From: Spirogloea muscicola
Lineage: Eukaryota
NCBI GenBank assembly: GCA_009602725.1
Contig: WELB01000003.1
Coordinates: forward strand, 537,457 to 585,561
Length of the DNA stretch: 48,105 nucleotides
Direction: 5' to 3'
Shown here: positions 12,811 through 32,700 of the stretch, one piece after another
Numbering within the stretch: position 1 is the stretch's first letter
Layout of the letters: the number at the start of each line of letters is the position of its first letter
The notes under the pieces: generated by a model
What the model saw: the letters and a program-made list of their open reading frames with translations, nothing else
Told to the model about the DNA's origin: nothing
Databases searched by the model: none
Made by a program: the position numbers and the translations under genes

Positions 12811-21251
<8,441 letters not shown>

Positions 21252-21618
21252 TAGCTTTTCTGTCCCCTGTTTTGCTTACTCTCAAAAACCTGGCCACCAC
21301 TGTGCATCTCACGGTCAATAGCCTGGGCCATAACCGCGTCGTGAGCATGTAAAACCTCGGTACGAATAGCGCTACGCTCCACCGGTGGGAGCCGGGCATG
21401 GCGCATAGGTGACATGGACTTAGGTGGCAAGGCAAGCGTGCTTTAACCAATGGTTGGGTGTTCATTAGACTGCTAGCTGGATACTTGCACTTTCACTTAT
21501 GTAGTATTACTTGCTCCAATGTAAATCACGCTGTCAGAACTGCAAAGGAAGCCTCTATAGCTACATTACCTTGCCATATCAACAACATAAAATGTTTACT
21601 TTGTGTATCTTGTTAGCA

Positions 21619-24600
21619 CTACTCCACATTTGCAGCTTGCTCCCGCAGTTGTTCTATTGCCTGCTTCATTCTGAGGCCCAGTTGAGTCAAAGCCATGTCG
21701 GCAGCCTGCACAAGTAGCTTGTCGTGCTTAAGAAGCTGTTCATTTACATGCCAAGTTCGAAGGCAGGGCAGGCGAGGTTGCATCTGCAAGGAGGATGCTC
21801 AAGCAAGAGCTAAGAACATGAAGCATTCAGATCCAGGTTCAGAATTTGACATATTGACTACTGAATCAGAGCCATCTGCCATTTGCATCTTGCCTTGGAG
21901 CAAAGCGTGTTGGCCTCTCTGTGAAGCTCCTGTGTCAAGAACTCCAGTGACCTCCCTACACGTACCACTTCCTGGAGGGGCCTGGCACACGACCAGCGAG
22001 GCTCTTAGAGCTCCAGTGCAATGCTCACATCCTGCCTGTAGCAGTGCCTCAGGCAAGCTGCCTACCTGGACTTGCTCGGGCTGATCAGGAGCTCCTCTGC
22101 TGACTTCACGTGTATCCGCAACCTGTCCAACTGACACACAAGAAAGTGCAAACAATCTTGTGCAATTACAAGTGGAAGCACATATTTCTGTAGGTCAGAA
22201 GAGGCCAGTGGCCATTGGGCTGCCTAGATGGTCTATCTACACACAATGTTATGCAAGGTGGTAACATTTTGGATGTTGCTCTTGAGGACAGACTGTCTTG
22301 AGGACAGACTATCTTGAGGACAGACTGATGCAATTGTCCACTCATCACCTTCCCACATGGGAGTGGAAGCAGCCAGAGTACTCTAACCCCTTAGAACTCA
22401 CCTCTTCTCGAACATCCATGCGCGTAGCCAAGTACGCAGCCTCCTGCTCAAGCCTGCCACGGTCCAGCTCCAAGCCAGTCTCCAGGAGTTCCTCAACCTG
22501 CTCATCACAGACTGGCCGCTGAGCAAGCGAGGCTATGGCACTGGTAAAAGATATCATTGACAAACGCACCTGACTCCCAGTAACAAGGCAGTGCTTAGTA
22601 CTTTCCCTGTGCAGAGTACGTTCCTTATGTAGAGGTTTCTTTGCTCACCTGTGACCTAAGCTTCTCTTTCATGGCCTTGGGCTGCGCTTCAGCAAGCCGT
22701 GCGGCCTGTTCCACCAGCACGGCGATCTCGGTCAGGTGGGAGCGCAGGACGCTTGCCAGTCTCGTACCCTCGCCCCGGCGGCTCAAGGCCAGCTGCTCCA
22801 GAGCGGCCGCCATGCTGTCATAACCAATGCCCAAGGGCCATGATGAACTTTGCAGTGGAAATTGACTGCAGAAGCGTCTGCACTCATTATGACCCCTTGA
22901 ATTGTGTTCTGCACTGCTACTGGTGTTTATATTATGCTCGTATCACATGCCATGCCAGTCCTACACTGACTTGCCTAGAATCACACGCTGTCCTTGCTCG
23001 CGCCTTACGATTGGTAGATTTGCCCCTAGCAGCCCAGTCCACCAACGTGAATACCTTGCAGAGATAGCCTCCAGCTGTTGAACGTCCTCACCATCCTGAC
23101 TATCAGAGCTTCTGCAGTCCACCCGCTCTAAGATGCCCTGTCAGTCAGAACCTGCCGGTCAGGACAGATGCTCCCTATCAATCTCAATGGATGCCCTCTT
23201 TCTGTTGATGGGAGCAGAAAGGCCAGGAACTGGCTAGGAGACCTGCTCCAGACAGCTCAGCATGCAGGACAACCCAGAATACATGTTGATGCTGTGACTT
23301 ACAGGCAGTCTCAAGATGCTGTCAAGTGTCAGAATTGGGGAAAATTGCAGCTGAGGCAACTTCACATCCAAGGCTTCCGCTGCCTCAAGGACCTGCCCAC
23401 CATGATAGGAGCTGCTGAGAGGCCCTGATGTTGGCCTTGAAGCTGCAATTTTGATATTTTACAAGAGGCAGCAGCCTGGTACTGGTACTGAAGTCTCTAC
23501 CCATACCCTCACTATGCAGATCCATGAGTGGTGGAGCAGACGACCTGTTTGGTATGTCGGATTGCTCAGGTGAAGGGCCTGACACCACTGCAGAAATTCA
23601 GGCTATTCTCATGTGCCCTGACACAGGTGGAGCAAGGAATAGCATCAGAACCTGTCTGACGGCAGCCTCATTGATGACGATTTTGGTTGCCTTCTCCGCA
23701 ACTTCTTCTGACTGCTACACGTAAGACGCACCATTGAGAAAATTTCTTAGCTCTGCCCCTTCCACCAGAATTGGGTCCTACGGAAGCGTGTCTCCACTGA
23801 AGAGGTATGGCACTTGTGGCAGAGCTGTGGCACCTGCAAGGTGAGGGTGGTGTTAATCGTCCCGCGAGCAAAGCGCTGCTGTGCAGAAGTTGCAAGCGCC
23901 TGCTGGAGGCCCGAAAACCTGTCGGGCAGCCGGCACTTGACGTCCAGAGTACGCCCATTGACGCTCCTCATCTGCATGACCAGCCGAGACTCATCTGCCT
24001 CACATCTTGCTAACAAAGAAGGATGCATCATCAATGACTACAGTAGACAACTTGCAATCAATGCTGAAATATCTTGAGCATAATCAGCGGCTAGAATCTC
24101 CTACCAATCCAATTTCACCATAAGAAAGTAAAGGTCAACGCAGGCACAATAGAACAGCACCTCCCAGCACCATGTCAGCCCGTCCACACGGCCCTCGGAG
24201 GTAGCAAACCCCGTCATGCCCGAGATACCCACATCGCCCAGCAGTGCTGCCGCTTGTCCCAAGTTGTCACCGTCCACTGGCCCAATGCCAGATGTGACAG
24301 CAACGGGGTTGACAGGCGGCAGTCTTTCGACACTCTGGTCGCACCCAACGACCACTGCCCACGGGCGGATCCACCACTTGGTCACTAGACCATTCAGCAC
24401 ATATGGATCCCTTGCTGCAAACTGCTCCGCATCTGCATCCAATCTTCAGCTTAGGCATCTATGTGCCAATGCATGTGCATAATTACTGCTCTCACATGGA
24501 GGAGCTGCACTGAGCAGTACCAGCAGCAAGAGCACAATCTGAAATATTATTCTTACCGATAATGTGCCCAACATGGAAGACGAGGACGGCACTGTCAACT

Positions 24601-25701
24601 GGATCATGCAGTGGGCCACCTAGCAGGAGGTCGCCGCGCACAACATGCTCCTGGCAGAGTGCCAAGTGCGCTGCACGGTGTGGCGCCCGCCTTTCCACAA
24701 CGTTCTTGACGTACTCTGCGTGGTACAGCAGCCGCATACAAGTCAGGCTGGCCCTGGACTTCACCAGCTCCATACTGCGCCGTCAAGAGTTGAGCATGCC
24801 TCTAATTGTGAGTCATTGATTTCATCAGCTGCTGGAGATTACATCTGTGAGAAGAAGCCGACCAAGGATCAGGAGTCTACACTGTCATTGGCTCAGACTT
24901 GCTAGTACTTACATTGCTGATTCCTGCAGAAAGCTAGATGCAAGAAGTGGTGGCCAATTGCTTTTAGTTCCTCAGCTGCCAAGCCTTGAACAATCTGCAA
25001 TCCTCTCGCTATCGACAGGCAGTTTGTGCTTCGCTGCTGACTACACAAAGCACGACAGCTGTGACATCGTTGTCGTGGAGAACCATGTGCAGAGAAGGTG
25101 CTGTATGTGCTGAATTGAGCCCTCGCTGTGGCTGAGATGCTAAGCCAGCAGACTGCGACCTGGCATTTTGATGGGCATGGAACGAGGGCAGGAGTCCCAG
25201 CCTCGGAACGTTTCTTGGACCAATTCTAACGCTTTTCTGGACCATTCGAGCTTTGTCCATTGTTCTCTGGGCTGGCCACAATCGCACCCCGTCGCCCTCT
25301 ACTGGAAGAGTCTTTCTTGTTATTCTCGGAACGTGAGCTTGGGCAGGAGGGAGAACCCAAGACGGGAGGGAGGGTGCGGTGCAGAAGCTGGGGGATTTAG
25401 TAAGTAATTAAGGTTCATGGTTATGGAGGTCCAGGTCAATACCGCGACTTAGGGCTAAGAGGGTGCAACGTGTAGAATTCGAGGTCTAGGGTTCGATTCA
25501 GGATGCGTCACCGTAGAAGAGCACGAAGTGTCGCCTGGCCCGCTCCCCACCGGCCGCGGCCGCGGTGGCAGAGGCCGCCCGTGCCGGCGCCCATCTCGCG
25601 GCGACGGCTCCGGTGCCGCTGTGGCCGCGGCCATAGCGGCAGTCGGCGTCCGCCAGCAGGCGCCGCGGCGGCGGCAGGCGGCGGGCGGCGGCGGCCAGCA
25701 T
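21619..25701 (-). CDS. yicC: YCII-domain / YicC(YloC)-family endoribonuclease fusion protein with putative organellar (mitochondrial-like) presequence
   Basis: Exon 25701-25512: MLAAAARRLPPPRRLL...RHFVLFY. Exon 24715-24557: EYVKNVVERRAPHRAAHL...LLLGGPLHDPVDSAVLVF. Exon 24432-24161: AEQFAARDPYVLNGLVTKWWIRPWAVVVG-linker-ISGMTGFATSEG..TWCWE. Exon 23971-23834: MRSVNGRTLDVKCRLP..FARGTI. Exon 22814-22649: ALEQLALSRRGEG. Exon 22497-22402: RLEQEAAYLATRMDVREE. Exon 22130-22066: LDRLRIHV. Exon 21981-21894: VGRSLEFLTQELHREANTLCSK. Exon 21705-21619: IEQLREQAANVE*. Some middle exons (23.0-23.7 kb) are not fully resolved. Confidence 0.88.
22280..22327. repeat. 16-bp tandem repeat x3 (TCTTGAGGACAGACTR) in an intron of the YCII-YicC gene
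   Basis: Read directly. Confidence 0.9.
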
Positions 25702-25784
25702 CGCTTGCGCTGCTTCACGCCGCCATGGCGNTCGTCCTGGCGCTGAAGCCGAGCGGCGCTCACCATTTTGATGTGTTCGCATAG

Positions 25785-26971
25785 GTCACGGACACAGGTG
25801 CCGGCATCTCGCCAGCAGACGCGCCACGCCTCTTCCGCAAGTTTGCAGCCGCCGACCCCGTTGCCGGCCGCGGTGCTGGCGGTGCCGGCCTCGGCCTTGC
25901 CATCTGCAAGCGGTTTGGCAATGGCCGCCCTTAAACCACTTTCTGCTGCTCCATCTCACTTCCTCTGCCATTCCTCGTCTCCCTTCAAAACCCCCGTGCA
26001 TACCTCACCTTCTACATCCCTCTCTCTCATCTGCAGATTCGTGAACCTGATGGGCGGCCACTTGTGGGTGGAGAGTGAGGGTGCTGGTCGCGGCACGACC
26101 GTCACATTCACGGCGCGGCTTGGGCCGCCCCTTCCGGAAATGGAGGAGGCGCGACCGAGCCCAGGGCGCGCTGGCACTGGTGCTGCTGCCAACGGCGAAC
26201 TCCTGGTGCCCGCCAGGCGCTGTGACTTCTCAGGGGTCAGGGTTTTGGTCACAGACGACAACAGGTGCCCCTTCCTCCCATCCCCTGCTGCCCACCTCCC
26301 TCCTCTCTCCCTCCTTCCTTGGGGCCATGCCCTCACCTCCCTCCTTTCTGGCACCCTCCTCATGTTGCAAGATGACCAGACATTGCCCCATGGCAATGCA
26401 TTTTCCTGCAGCGTCAACCGAATGGTCACGCGGGGCCTCCTGACGCGACTTGGATGCGACGTCACTGTCGTGAGCTCCGGCCGTGAGTGCCTGTCTGCCA
26501 TGCTGCCCGGCCACGGCTTCACGGTATGCTGCCATAACCCATATCCAGAACAATAGGCCTTCAGGCAATGAGCGATCCTCTCGTATACCACATCCCTCAT
26601 CTGATTCCCCTCTTCTTTTAGCACAAGACTGTGGCGCCTTCCTTGCTGCTCTACACAACTTACAGCTGCCCAGGATGCCGAACGGTGCGCAGGTGCTGCT
26701 GCTGGACCTGATCATGCCAGAGATGGACGGATACGAGGTCGCGCGCCGCATTGCTGAGAAGAACATTGCCGGTCCAGAGCGGCCCTTCATTGTCGCACTT
26801 ACAGCCAACACTGACGCTGACACACGCGAACGCTGCCTGCAGCTCGGCATGGATGGCGTTGTCACCAAGCCCATCTCGCTTGAGAAGATGAGCACCGTGC
26901 TCTCGGAGCTCCTCAAGAGCGGCTCCATTGCCAGCGGCGGCGGCGGCAATGGCACCCCTGTGCTTCTCTAG
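25785..26971 (+). CDS. ETR1: ETR1-type ethylene receptor, C-terminal part only (HATPase G1/F/G2 boxes + receiver); exons 25785-25912, 26037-26264, 26412-26523, 26693-26971; 5' part absent
   Basis: [20 protein letters not shown]...[30 protein letters not shown]...[36 protein letters not shown]...[14 protein letters not shown]...[12 protein letters not shown]...[19 protein letters not shown]. This is colinear with the ETR1 C-terminus. The TM, GAF and HisKA domains are not in view beyond the N at 25731. Confidence 0.8.
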
Positions 26972-29707: not shown

Positions 29708-32700
29708 ATTTTGGCGGAGAAGGGCCTGGAGACGGTGCGCGAGATCGTGGAGGGCGCCGCCGAGGGCGCCGCCGCCGGCCAGCCGGCGGCCGCCGAGAAG
29801 GCGCGCTGCCTTCCGCCCCCTTGCATGAGAATTTTGACTTAAGGGTCAAATCAGCTTCGGCCGCTCGGATGGCCGCCGGGCCTGTGCCTCTGCCGCGGAC
29901 TGCAGTCGGCCCAAGGTTCAGGAATTAGGATCCGGGCTTCAATATTGAATTACTTCCCAAATTCCCACACCCCAGTACAGCCCGTTGATTCAAAGCCGCA
30001 GCTTTAAAGCGTGCTGAATGGTGCTGACAAAATCCTAGCCTGGGGTTTCGGATCCCTCCTTTGCGGCGGCGGTACAGGTTGGGGACTTCTACCGCTGCGC
30101 CATGGACGTGGAGCGCATCGAGGCCGAGGGCTTGGCGCCGCTGGAGGGCCTCCTGCGCAACATCGATGGCGGCGTCACCAGCCGCCCCGCCCTCCTCGCG
30201 CTGCTGCACAAGAAGGTGGCTCCTGCTGGCAGTGCCGCCAGAGCAATACCTCCTAAGTCTCAAACCCTATACTTTCTATCCTAAACCTCGTTTCCTATGT
30301 CATCAGCTTCTTAGTGAGCTACTTGATGAAGATGTCAAAGATACATTTAGCCTGGCAGCAGTAGAGCTGACGACGATCGCGGCTGGCCGGCGGGGCGGCG
30401 GCGCTTGCAGCTGTTTGGGCCTGGGTTCTTCGGCCGGCCGCAGCCGCTCTTCTCCATCTCTGATGGGCCCGACTCCAAGCGCAGCTCCTGGAGCATCCTC
30501 CAGCTCAACGCCGACGGCCTCGGCCTGCCCGACCGCGACTACTACTTCGCCGAAGAGAAGGCCTCCATTCGCGAGCAGTATGCCGCGCACCTCGAGAAGA
30601 TCTTCAGGCTGCTTGGCGATGACGAGGATGCTGCCAAGGTGCACATTGCTGCTAAATGGGGTGCAGCAAGCGATTGCCGAGCAGCACGCTCGACGGTATC
30701 CAATGCAGAGAATTTTTGAGCCTGACCGAAAGTCAGATGATGAGCTCGGCTATTGAGAATTGCTCATGTGCAGGAGAATGCAACAGGTGTGTTTGCCTTT
30801 GAGACGGAGCTGGCGCACAACCACCTGACAAAGGTGGAGCGGCGGGACCAGGACCGCGTGTACAACAAGCGCACGCCGACCGAGCTCGCGGAGCTCAGCC
30901 CCAAGTTTGACTTTGCCGCTTACTTCAGGTACTCATGACAGCCTCGGTCTCTCTGCCATATACCCACACCCTCGAAGCCATGGGCAGTCCGAGGTGGGAT
31001 TTCGTATGCTTAGCTCCTTACTTCCTCGCTTCCATGACAATGTGGAAGCAGCTATGTGCTCAGCTCGACGGCTGGGCCCCTTGGTATTGGCAGGGAGCAC
31101 GGCATAGACCCGCCAGAGCTCAATGTGGAGCAGCCGGCATATATCTCGGCAATGGGGGAGGCCGTCAGCGAGCTATCTGATGCAACTTGGTGCGCTTACC
31201 TGCGGTGGTTCCTAGTCCGGGGCACGTCGGAGCTGGTGATGTGCAGAGCCCCTCCCACTTGCCGTACACCCAAGGCCCTTGAAACCCATGGTTGTTTTGT
31301 GGATGCTCATTGTGCATTTCCTTGGCTGTGCTTGACCTGTTGGACGTGACACTGCTGAGCTCAACTTGTATCTGTATTAGACCTCTATAAGTTCTACATG
31401 CTGATCATCAAATCTGCTACCTATCGCATGGCGATTCTTATATGTCCTCTATCTGTGCGTGGCGGTTGCGCAGCTTCCAGACGTCTTCGTGCAAGCAGAC
31501 TTTGAGTTCTATGGTCAGGTCCTGACGGGGCAGCCCGAGATCAAGCCCCGCTGGAAGCGCACCCTCGCTGTGCTCGACAAGGCCCTAGGCGAGGCGGTCG
31601 GCGAGATGTACGTCCAGAAGGTGAGGGCCAGCAGCGCCGCTTATCTTGCCCTCACACCACAGCTCCCTCATGCTTGACCCTGTTGATTATATCATTTGGT
31701 ATACAGTCTTCACTGGCAAAGCAGGGCTGTGTCAGGTATTTCCGCCAGAGGCCAAGTCAAGGGCGATGGCTATCGTGGACTCAGTCACGGACGCGCTCCG
31801 GGAGCGGCTTCAGGAGCTGCGGTGGATGACTGAGGAGACTAAGCAGCGGGCACTAGAGAAGCTGTCCACGTTCCGCGTGAAAATTGGGTACCCCGACAAA
31901 TTCATTGACTACTCCGACCTCCAGGTGGGCCGACGACATACACTTCTGGCAGAAAAGGATGGTGTGTGCGCTGCACTGGGCATCTATGTCCTGTGCAAGC
32001 TGATGCAGAAGGGCCTCAAGCACAGCATCGTCACAACCAATGAAAAACACAATGGCCTTGCCTTACGATGTCTGCACAGCAAAGGATGTTAAGATAGACA
32101 GCGCACTCTGGGGAGGGGCGGTGATTGAAAGTCTGTATGGTGCTCAGGTGAAGGGCATGTCGTACGTGGAGATGGGAATGGCTGGCAGCAGCTTCCACTT
32201 GGCGCGATGCCTGGCACGGATCGACAGGCCGGTCGATCGCTCGCGGTGGCTCATGACGCCGCAGACGGTGAATGCGTACTACCACCCCAAGCTAAACGAG
32301 ATCGTCTTCCCAGCTGCCATCCTGCAGTTCCCATTTTTCGACCCAACATCAGATGACGCCGTCAATTACGGCGCCATGGGCACGGTCGTGGGGCATGAGA
32401 TGACACATGGTGGGCGCTGCCGCGAGAAACTTGTGGGCCATTGGAGATGCACGAGTTGATGTCACTGCTGCCATCTATAGCGTGCGACTTTGGGCCATGA
32501 CAGTTGCACAGAAGAAGCTATGCCCAGTAGTTGCAGTCAACCTCCTGGAATCGTTGTCTTTGCTGTCCTATTCAAATTGATATGTTGCGCATTCTTTGAA
32601 TCCCTACTGGTGCAGTATTGGCACCTCACTGTCACCGTGCTGATGTTGCATACTGATGGCCCCATCTATGCTCCATACCACAGGTTATGATGACCAAGGG

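Follow-up and report, generated by a model that had tools for sequence, protein, structure and literature searches.

The stretch analysed here (the window) comprises 48,105 nucleotides of Spirogloea muscicola contig WELB01000003.1 (GenBank assembly GCA_009602725.1, positions 537,457 to 585,561 of the forward strand) and contains on its minus strand a gene in which a YCII domain is fused to a complete YicC-family ribonuclease. Twelve exons joined from 25701 to 21619 give 1497 nucleotides encoding 498 residues with no internal stops, separated by ten GT-AG introns and one GC-AG intron. The encoded protein consists of a 57-residue leader, the YCII domain, a linker of ∼40 residues, and complete YicC. 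The fusion is real and its observation is confirmed: the junction exon (24161-24432, minus strand) carries the YCII C-terminus, the linker, and the start of YicC in one open frame. A preliminary description of this DNA had placed these elements in that exon, and its coordinates and motifs hold; its reading of the locus as a spliced eukaryotic gene is borne out by the twelve-exon frame and by spliced contigs. The same fusion occurs in Klebsormidium nitens (GAQ80952.1, KFL_000670100, UniProt A0A1Y1HT03), labelled 'hypothetical protein'. The exons are as follows.

25512..25701, minus strand: exon 1, residues 1-63; the 57-residue Arg/Ala-rich leader and the first YCII strand, in an open frame with a GT donor
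24557..24715, minus strand: exon 2, residues 64-116; YCII core (PRK12866-type) with RxxH motif including His80; Pfam YCII match
24161..24432, minus strand: exon 3 (junction exon), residues 117-207; YCII C-terminus, linker, and YicC N-terminus, with Met189 corresponding to E. coli M5
23834..23971, minus strand: exon 4, residues 208-253; RSVN motif, with Asn212 and Arg214 corresponding to N28 and R30; RNA joint 23971/24161
23652..23714, minus strand: exon 5, residues 254-274; in-frame exon, homologous to bacterial YicC by alignment
23545..23617, minus strand: alternative 73-nucleotide exon; replaces exon 5 in the main RNA contig, shifting the frame to a stop at residue 255
23303..23392, minus strand: exon 6, residues 275-304; from the frame model and spliced contigs
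23055..23137, minus strand: exon 7, residues 305-331; from the frame model and spliced contigs
22649..22814, minus strand: exon 8, residues 332-387; long helix bearing the R..EG..L motif
22402..22497, minus strand: exon 9, residues 388-419; Arg413, Glu418, and Glu419 corresponding to R211, E216, and E217; Pfam YicC-like_C
22066..22130, minus strand: exon 10, residues 420-440; His426 corresponding to B. subtilis H228; start of the algal loop insertion
21894..21981, minus strand: exon 11, residues 441-470; Phe455, Arg462, and Glu463 corresponding to F244, R251, and E252; GC donor at its end
21619..21705, minus strand: exon 12, residues 471-498 and stop; Arg491 and Glu492 corresponding to R280 and E281

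The last residues of exon 1 align with the first YCII strand of close homologues, and the donor of exon 2 is confirmed by joint 24432/24557 in spliced contigs. In-frame ATG codons within intron 1, at 24773 and 24737, are the starts used in public models and would yield a protein lacking the leader; exon 1 gives a better first YCII strand than these starts, which may still be the ones used. Exon 11 is placed by a Pfam match (expectation value, E, 2e-9) and by alignment to the PDB, with RNA joints skipping 84 and 188 nucleotides. Single exon frames match Pfam YCII (E 0.003), YicC-like_N (4e-12, exon 4), and YicC-like_C (6e-5, 2e-9, and 1e-4); the junction exon alone matches no Pfam family, and all three domains are carried by whole gene models. 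Model residues 185-498 align with nearly the whole of a profile built from 105 bacterial YicC proteins (positions 4-297 of 297, E 2e-98).

Ten residues whose mutation inactivates E. coli YicC are given in PMC10793500: E216, E217, E252, E281, R30, R251, R280, M5, N28, and F244. All ten are kept in the 498-residue model, which together with the profile coverage upholds the preliminary reading of a complete YicC; the catalytic acidic residues that it had proposed to check by alignment are all present. The catalytic glutamates correspond to E418, E419, E463, and E492, and all four are present in the Klebsormidium protein as well, whereas the RNA-binding residues R30, R251, and R280 and the positioning residues M5, N28, and F244 are retained 6/6 in the model and 5/6 in Klebsormidium, where R280 is replaced by Lys (9/10 overall). 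R211 and the B. subtilis YloC residues H228 and N258 (PMC8906540) are also kept in the model. The predicted structure of the Klebsormidium fusion protein has a predicted local distance difference test score (pLDDT) above 90 in both domains and a disordered linker, and in Foldseek it matches YicC structure 8ver (E 1e-19, template modelling score 0.82) and the YCII structures 4lbh (TftG) and 1mwq (HI0828); the YicC fold match is thus a property of the Klebsormidium model rather than of one for the Spirogloea protein. A fold prediction from three sequences was unusable (pLDDT 42). YicC is described as a hexamer shaped like a clamshell, which shuts around an RNA hairpin (PMC10793500), and YloC carrying a His-SUMO tag at its N-terminus retains activity (PMC8906540), so that an extra N-terminal domain need not block the enzyme. 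By homology, the fusion protein would be expected to be a hexamer with RNase activity.

The Klebsormidium protein carries YCII, YicC_N, and YicC_C in the same order, scores 176.9 against TIGR00255 (cut-off 167.5), and is 43% identical to the Spirogloea protein in each domain. The distribution of the fusion is taken from an index-free search of 1.84 billion representatives (best 150 of 7840 matches, down to 106 bits), because word-based protein searches were too insensitive: one (5 matches among 7996 candidates) missed the Klebsormidium protein, and a second (146 matches among 6555, best 120 of 146) did not have the three Spirogloea copies among the matches listed. Besides two Spirogloea copies, a single protein among the best 150 of 7840 spans both domains, that of Klebsormidium at 210 bits. 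Relatives more than 50% identical to a representative would not show up separately, and eukaryotic models that are split or incomplete might have lower scores. No other eukaryotic YicC was recognised among these 150 (10 looked up by name) or among the best 120 of 146. The YCII-YicC architecture is already in UniProt and NCBI, unnamed. The preliminary description knew of no account of it; in the literature searched, no description of a eukaryotic YicC or of the fusion was found (the main text of PMC3655940 does not contain 'YicC', and transfer lists in genome papers might include the gene), but the Klebsormidium protein in public databases had been missed.

Similarity to bacterial YicC decreases in the order Azospirillum (157 bits), Rhizobiales (100-110), and Gammaproteobacteria and Bacillus (67-87), and in a maximum-likelihood tree of 50 rows the two algal YicC parts are sisters (support 99/96) within a clade of alphaproteobacterial type (100/99), in which the donor is not resolved. 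The rows of this tree were picked from sequences in hand without Rickettsiales and cyanobacteria, its bootstrap is not fully settled, and the alphaproteobacterial loci were selected with patterns derived from alphaproteobacteria. The alphaproteobacterial flavour noticed in the preliminary description is supported by both the gradient and the clade. The nearest sequences are of free-living Rhodospirillales types. Two features are common to the algal proteins, a loop insertion at the same site (23 and 33 residues, versus 14 in 221 of the 234 bacterial rows that could be scored) and a C-terminal EQAAN (4 of 252 bacterial rows). In a sequence atlas, YicC clusters are only bacterial (0.82-0.83) and YCII clusters are bacterial (0.94). 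PMC10793500 describes the YicC family as bacterial only, and the string 'eukary' appears in neither of two YicC papers. Nested among alphaproteobacterial sequences, bearing introns, lying in eukaryotic DNA, and patchy among eukaryotes, the algal YicC was likely acquired horizontally from Alphaproteobacteria, and its presence in a second, distant alga makes an old transfer likely. Two placements were discarded. In a quick tree of 63 rows, with 59 left out, the Spirogloea YicC stood beside loci L006 and L033 (Shimodaira-Hasegawa-like approximate likelihood ratio test 90), a position lost once Klebsormidium was added; and a plastid origin is rejected on the tree placement and on TIGR00255, which is found in 5 of 14 control genomes, Synechococcus elongatus not among them.

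The explanation we favour, to which we give somewhat better than an even chance, is that an early streptophyte alga took a complete YicC-family ribonuclease from an alphaproteobacterium and fused it to YCII, the product being a hexameric, metal-dependent clamp for cleaving short structured RNAs, perhaps within an organelle. Several results tell against it. The fusion was found in only two species; the Klebsormidium YicC is a long branch, and its 215 bits fall short of the 237 of the best-scoring bacterium; an approximately unbiased (AU) test leaves standing a tree in which the Spirogloea YicC is removed from Klebsormidium and joins two sequences of Rhodospirillaceae type (p 0.35); and the algal YCII domains group in 0% of bootstrap trees (41 rows, 98 columns). 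The per-domain phylogeny proposed in the preliminary description thus unites the YicC parts and leaves the YCII domains ungrouped, although an AU test holding the two YCII domains together is not rejected (p 0.24). The AU result for YicC and the ungrouped YCII domains would also fit two separate events, in which each alga independently gained either a yicC of alphaproteobacterial origin or a fusion already formed in an unsampled bacterium, as would the poor alignment of the algal linkers and the lack of intermediate lineages among the best 150 of 7840 matches. We consider this improbable, given that the two proteins have the same domain order and YCII subfamily, sister YicC parts, and a common insertion site and C-terminal motif, and that a bacterial fusion was sought without success: among the best 150 of 7840 matches there is none, 0 of 199 loci fetched (188 YicC, 11 YCII) hold both domains, and no match spans both in 201 Pseudomonadota genomes. 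A metagenome scan gave 74 loci, none of which has both. The PRK12866 type passes its own cut-off in 1 of the 201 genomes.

A relic of the mitochondrial endosymbiont, retained by a few streptophyte algae and lost elsewhere, would likewise account for the alphaproteobacterial placement and for a basic leader in Spirogloea (11 Arg, 3 acidic). It would require loss in nearly all eukaryotes, among which no other YicC was recognised within the best matches of either search, and the nearest sequences are free-living types, in a tree lacking Rickettsiales and with the position inside Alphaproteobacteria not settled; we regard such a relic as distinctly doubtful, a shade more so than separate gains. 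The preliminary description had left the choice between an endosymbiont and horizontal transfer open; transfer from a bacterium is retained, and an endosymbiotic source is less likely than a later transfer because only two species were found.

The junction exon matches three EukProt gene models of the Spirogloea genome, P0001-P0003, at 100, 94, and 96% identity (3 matches among 343 candidates), in a genome that is presumably triplicated; the identifiers of these models follow the style used for Spirogloea muscicola, of the Zygnematophyceae, in 10.1101/2022.07.21.501042. Each of the three holds PF03795, PF03755, and PF08340, so that the YCII, YicC_N, and DUF1732/YicC_C profiles named in the preliminary description are all matched. 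The ends of these models are wrong. Exon 11 is skipped, and exon 10 is read in another frame, in both P0001 and P0002; P0001 continues into downstream exons, P0003 has been merged with a BRCA2-repeat region lying upstream, and all three score under the TIGR00255 cut-off because exons 10-12 are absent in frame. The GC-AG intron (21706-21893, minus strand), shown by an RNA joint, is absent from the public models, and catalytic exon 11 is therefore lost from them. These chimeric ends, together with an N just upstream of the gene, would fit a fusion that is an artefact, either bacterial contamination or a model merging two adjacent genes. Such an artefact has hardly any probability left: there are eleven spliceosomal introns, nine of them in RNA, the junction lies within one contig-covered exon, and there are three copies and a second species. 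The spliced contigs and the Klebsormidium homologue refute it.

Transcript evidence comes from assembled contigs of one run, X1, which was taken as RNA by guess, the contigs being spliced; it was the sole match in a search of runs, in which none recorded as RNA was listed. They show nine of the eleven modelled introns, the GC-AG intron included, and with overlaps of 30 nucleotides they form a chain between exons 2 and 12. The first contig carries the end of YCII across the joint of exons 2 and 3, a second, with 0 differences, takes in the linker and YicC start, and a 909-nucleotide contig reaches from exon 3 to exon 12. The RNA check across 25701-21619 that had been proposed earlier thus finds the junction exon retained within spliced contigs, with the YCII core and YicC core never in one single contig. 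Exon 2 and most of exon 1 have no contig cover, which shows nothing. The exon 1-2 joint was not seen among the contigs of this run; an unspliced contig of 644 nucleotides (24948-25591), at a depth like that of the spliced contigs, takes in the last part of exon 1 and much of intron 1, an intron that may contain a small repeat, to judge by loose ends at 25279-25323. Just past the stop codon, an RNA contig skips 78 nucleotides (21523-21602) whose ends are non-canonical, which probably reflects a deletion in the 3' untranslated region of an allele or paralogue.

Three findings count against production of the full-length enzyme assumed in the favoured explanation. The main contig for this copy, that of 909 nucleotides (depth 18.3, both of its listed pieces free of differences), skips exon 5 for the 73-nucleotide stop exon; joints 23616/23833 and 23389/23542, both at depth 18.3, support this exon, and its AG/GT ends, offsets, and stop were checked. 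The exon 4-to-5 joint was found in no contig of the run. In P0003 the frame is lost in exon 4. The exon 5-6 joint occurs only at depth 2.9, the depth of a paralogue-like contig (seven differences, matching P0003). The preliminary description overlooked the frame-breaking exon that the main contig uses. Another paralogue-like contig, at 24178-24340, has 11 differences and one codon gone and mixes features of P0002 and P0003; it may stem from gene conversion, from a fourth copy, or from chimeric assembly.

The same findings, together with the unspliced contig across intron 1, raise the alternative that the YicC half is decaying after genome duplication, with the copies yielding mostly transcripts that are degraded or short and YCII-bearing, and little or no full-length RNase. 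This is rather unlikely in our estimate. The genomic frame is intact through twelve exons with all essential residues present; the copies differ less in the domains (3/83 and 12/233) than in the linker (4/40), though these numbers are small; 9 of 14 altered codons in paralogue-like contigs are silent changes; and the fusion is conserved in Klebsormidium. Moreover, contig assembly drops alternative paths, and the contigs therefore show the presence of the short isoform and not the absence of the long one.

The YCII domain matches PF03795 at 32-36 bits (cut-off 24), and gene models without the first strand score 97-102 bits against NF009508 (PRK12866), just under its cut-off of 108; by these profile scores it belongs near the PRK12866 subfamily. 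According to PMC4850264 and PMC7641849, YCII proteins are dimeric alpha-beta barrels with a proposed His-Asp dyad, and fusions to regulators are known; the dyad is D7/H22, the Asp lying 15 residues before the His (PMC4850264). His80 is kept in the model, and Tyr stands 15 residues ahead of it in both algal proteins, as in nine close homologues aligned; one residue earlier than the dyad Asp position the model has Glu and Klebsormidium Thr. The domain here is probably not a His-Asp enzyme, and probably serves as a flexibly tethered accessory that dimerises between neighbouring subunits; the regulatory role suggested for it in the preliminary description is not established. Other members of this subfamily were encountered: a stand-alone YCII at metagenome locus L178 (940-1494, plus strand), on a contig of 34% guanine plus cytosine (GC), has a 41-residue, acid-free, Ser/Thr-rich N-terminal extension resembling a targeting peptide, and proteins P0046 and P0081 each hold two tandem YCII domains of PRK12866 type.

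The preliminary description had taken the N-terminus for a mitochondrial presequence. It is indeed Arg/Ala-rich, the 57-residue leader having 11 Arg, 3 acidic, and 4 Ser/Thr residues, but a presequence is not established in view of base composition, hydrophobic moment, and the unseen exon 1-2 joint. The evidence here runs against the organellar part of the favoured explanation: the leader DNA is 81% GC, with Ala plus Arg at 0.36-0.54 in all six frames; its hydrophobic moment is equalled by 1450 of 2000 shuffles, indicating no excess; and the 95-residue Klebsormidium N-terminus is acidic (17 D/E, 3 R/K), from every Met. That N-terminus may be mis-modelled. A single N at 25731, which may be an assembly join, lies 30 nucleotides upstream of the exon 1 ATG, and with the apparent intron end of a histidine-kinase gene beyond it the gene as modelled may lack its true 5' end. 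In plants, most RNases of bacterial type work in organelles, and the transit peptides of green algae are rich in Ala and Arg; on these grounds organellar import through the leader is kept as an evenly balanced possibility.

The favoured explanation would run as follows. A single transfer and a single fusion would precede the split of Klebsormidiophyceae and Zygnematophyceae, with the incoming yicC inserted behind a YCII gene and borrowing its 5' end; a YCII gene is proposed as the landing site because bacteria do not keep both genes together. The full-length product would form a metal-dependent hexameric clamp cutting short structured RNAs, YCII would act as a flexible accessory making dimer contacts between adjacent subunits, and the leader would direct organellar import. 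The choice between exon 5 and the 73-nucleotide stop exon would set the amount of full-length enzyme, the short form keeping YCII and lacking the active site. A bolder version, which we put forward tentatively and consider possible rather than probable, is that this is the first eukaryotic YicC-family ribonuclease, an alphaproteobacterial enzyme clearing small RNAs that was fused behind a YCII gene in early streptophyte algae, is imported into an organelle and switched by stop-exon splicing, and was later lost in land plants. The recognition of YicC as an RNase is recent, and few of its natural substrates are known. If the favoured explanation is true, a bacterial-type RNase would join the RNA metabolism of the closest algal relatives of land plants, and one more gene would be added to the alphaproteobacterial transfers at the Klebsormidiophyceae node. 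A fusion kept across two distant streptophyte algae also offers an uncommon way into the study of YCII, which is widespread but of obscure function, and the enzyme can be assayed with and without YCII, Klebsormidium being culturable.

Frames neighbouring the fusion gene match ribosomal L20, HATPase_c plus receiver, peptidase M13, WW, Usp, and GDPD (9 of 20 open reading frames matched in one scan); the matches come in pieces, as for spliced genes, and the surroundings are of eukaryote type. The neighbours are as follows.

25731..26971, plus strand: HATPase_c exon (from 25788, 87 nucleotides from the fusion gene ATG) and receiver domain, which we take to resemble the C-terminal half of an ethylene-receptor-type kinase; its upstream exon is a loose end in RNA, outside the window
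30351..32456, plus strand: spliced peptidase M13 gene, neprilysin/PepO-type
15374..20841 and 5030..5990, plus strand: exon-like frames resembling, by eye, SMC5-type and HORMA/MAD2-type genes; no Pfam match in the single open reading frames tested

Among the closest known systems is Klebsormidium GAQ80952.1, which has the same domain order and is sister to the Spirogloea gene in the YicC tree, and which differs in its acidic 95-residue N-terminus, in a YCII domain five residues shorter in one helix, and in the replacements R280 to Lys and N254 to Ala. The PRK12866 YciI-like proteins (NF009508), TftG (4lbh), and HI0828 (1mwq) have in common with the Spirogloea YCII the ferredoxin-like fold and the RxxH and DPY motifs, and stand-alone bacterial PRK12866 members are 45-53% identical to it; unlike them, it is fused to an RNase and has Tyr instead of Asp 15 residues before the His. 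Bacterial YicC/YloC resembles the algal gene in homology over its full length (31% identity to E. coli, 44% to Azospirillum), in the ten essential residues, and in the same predicted fold, whereas the algal gene is nuclear and spliced, with a leader, YCII, and linker, and in Spirogloea has a loop insertion before the GR.LEF motif and a frame-breaking alternative exon. As to the route of acquisition, a parallel is EG16-2/XTH, for which PMC8711696 describes a transfer from Alphaproteobacteria to the Klebsormidiophyceae node: the donor class and the depth (the origin of Klebsormidiophyceae) are the same, but EG16-2/XTH is a cell-wall enzyme expanded in land plants, whereas YCII-YicC was found in two algae only.

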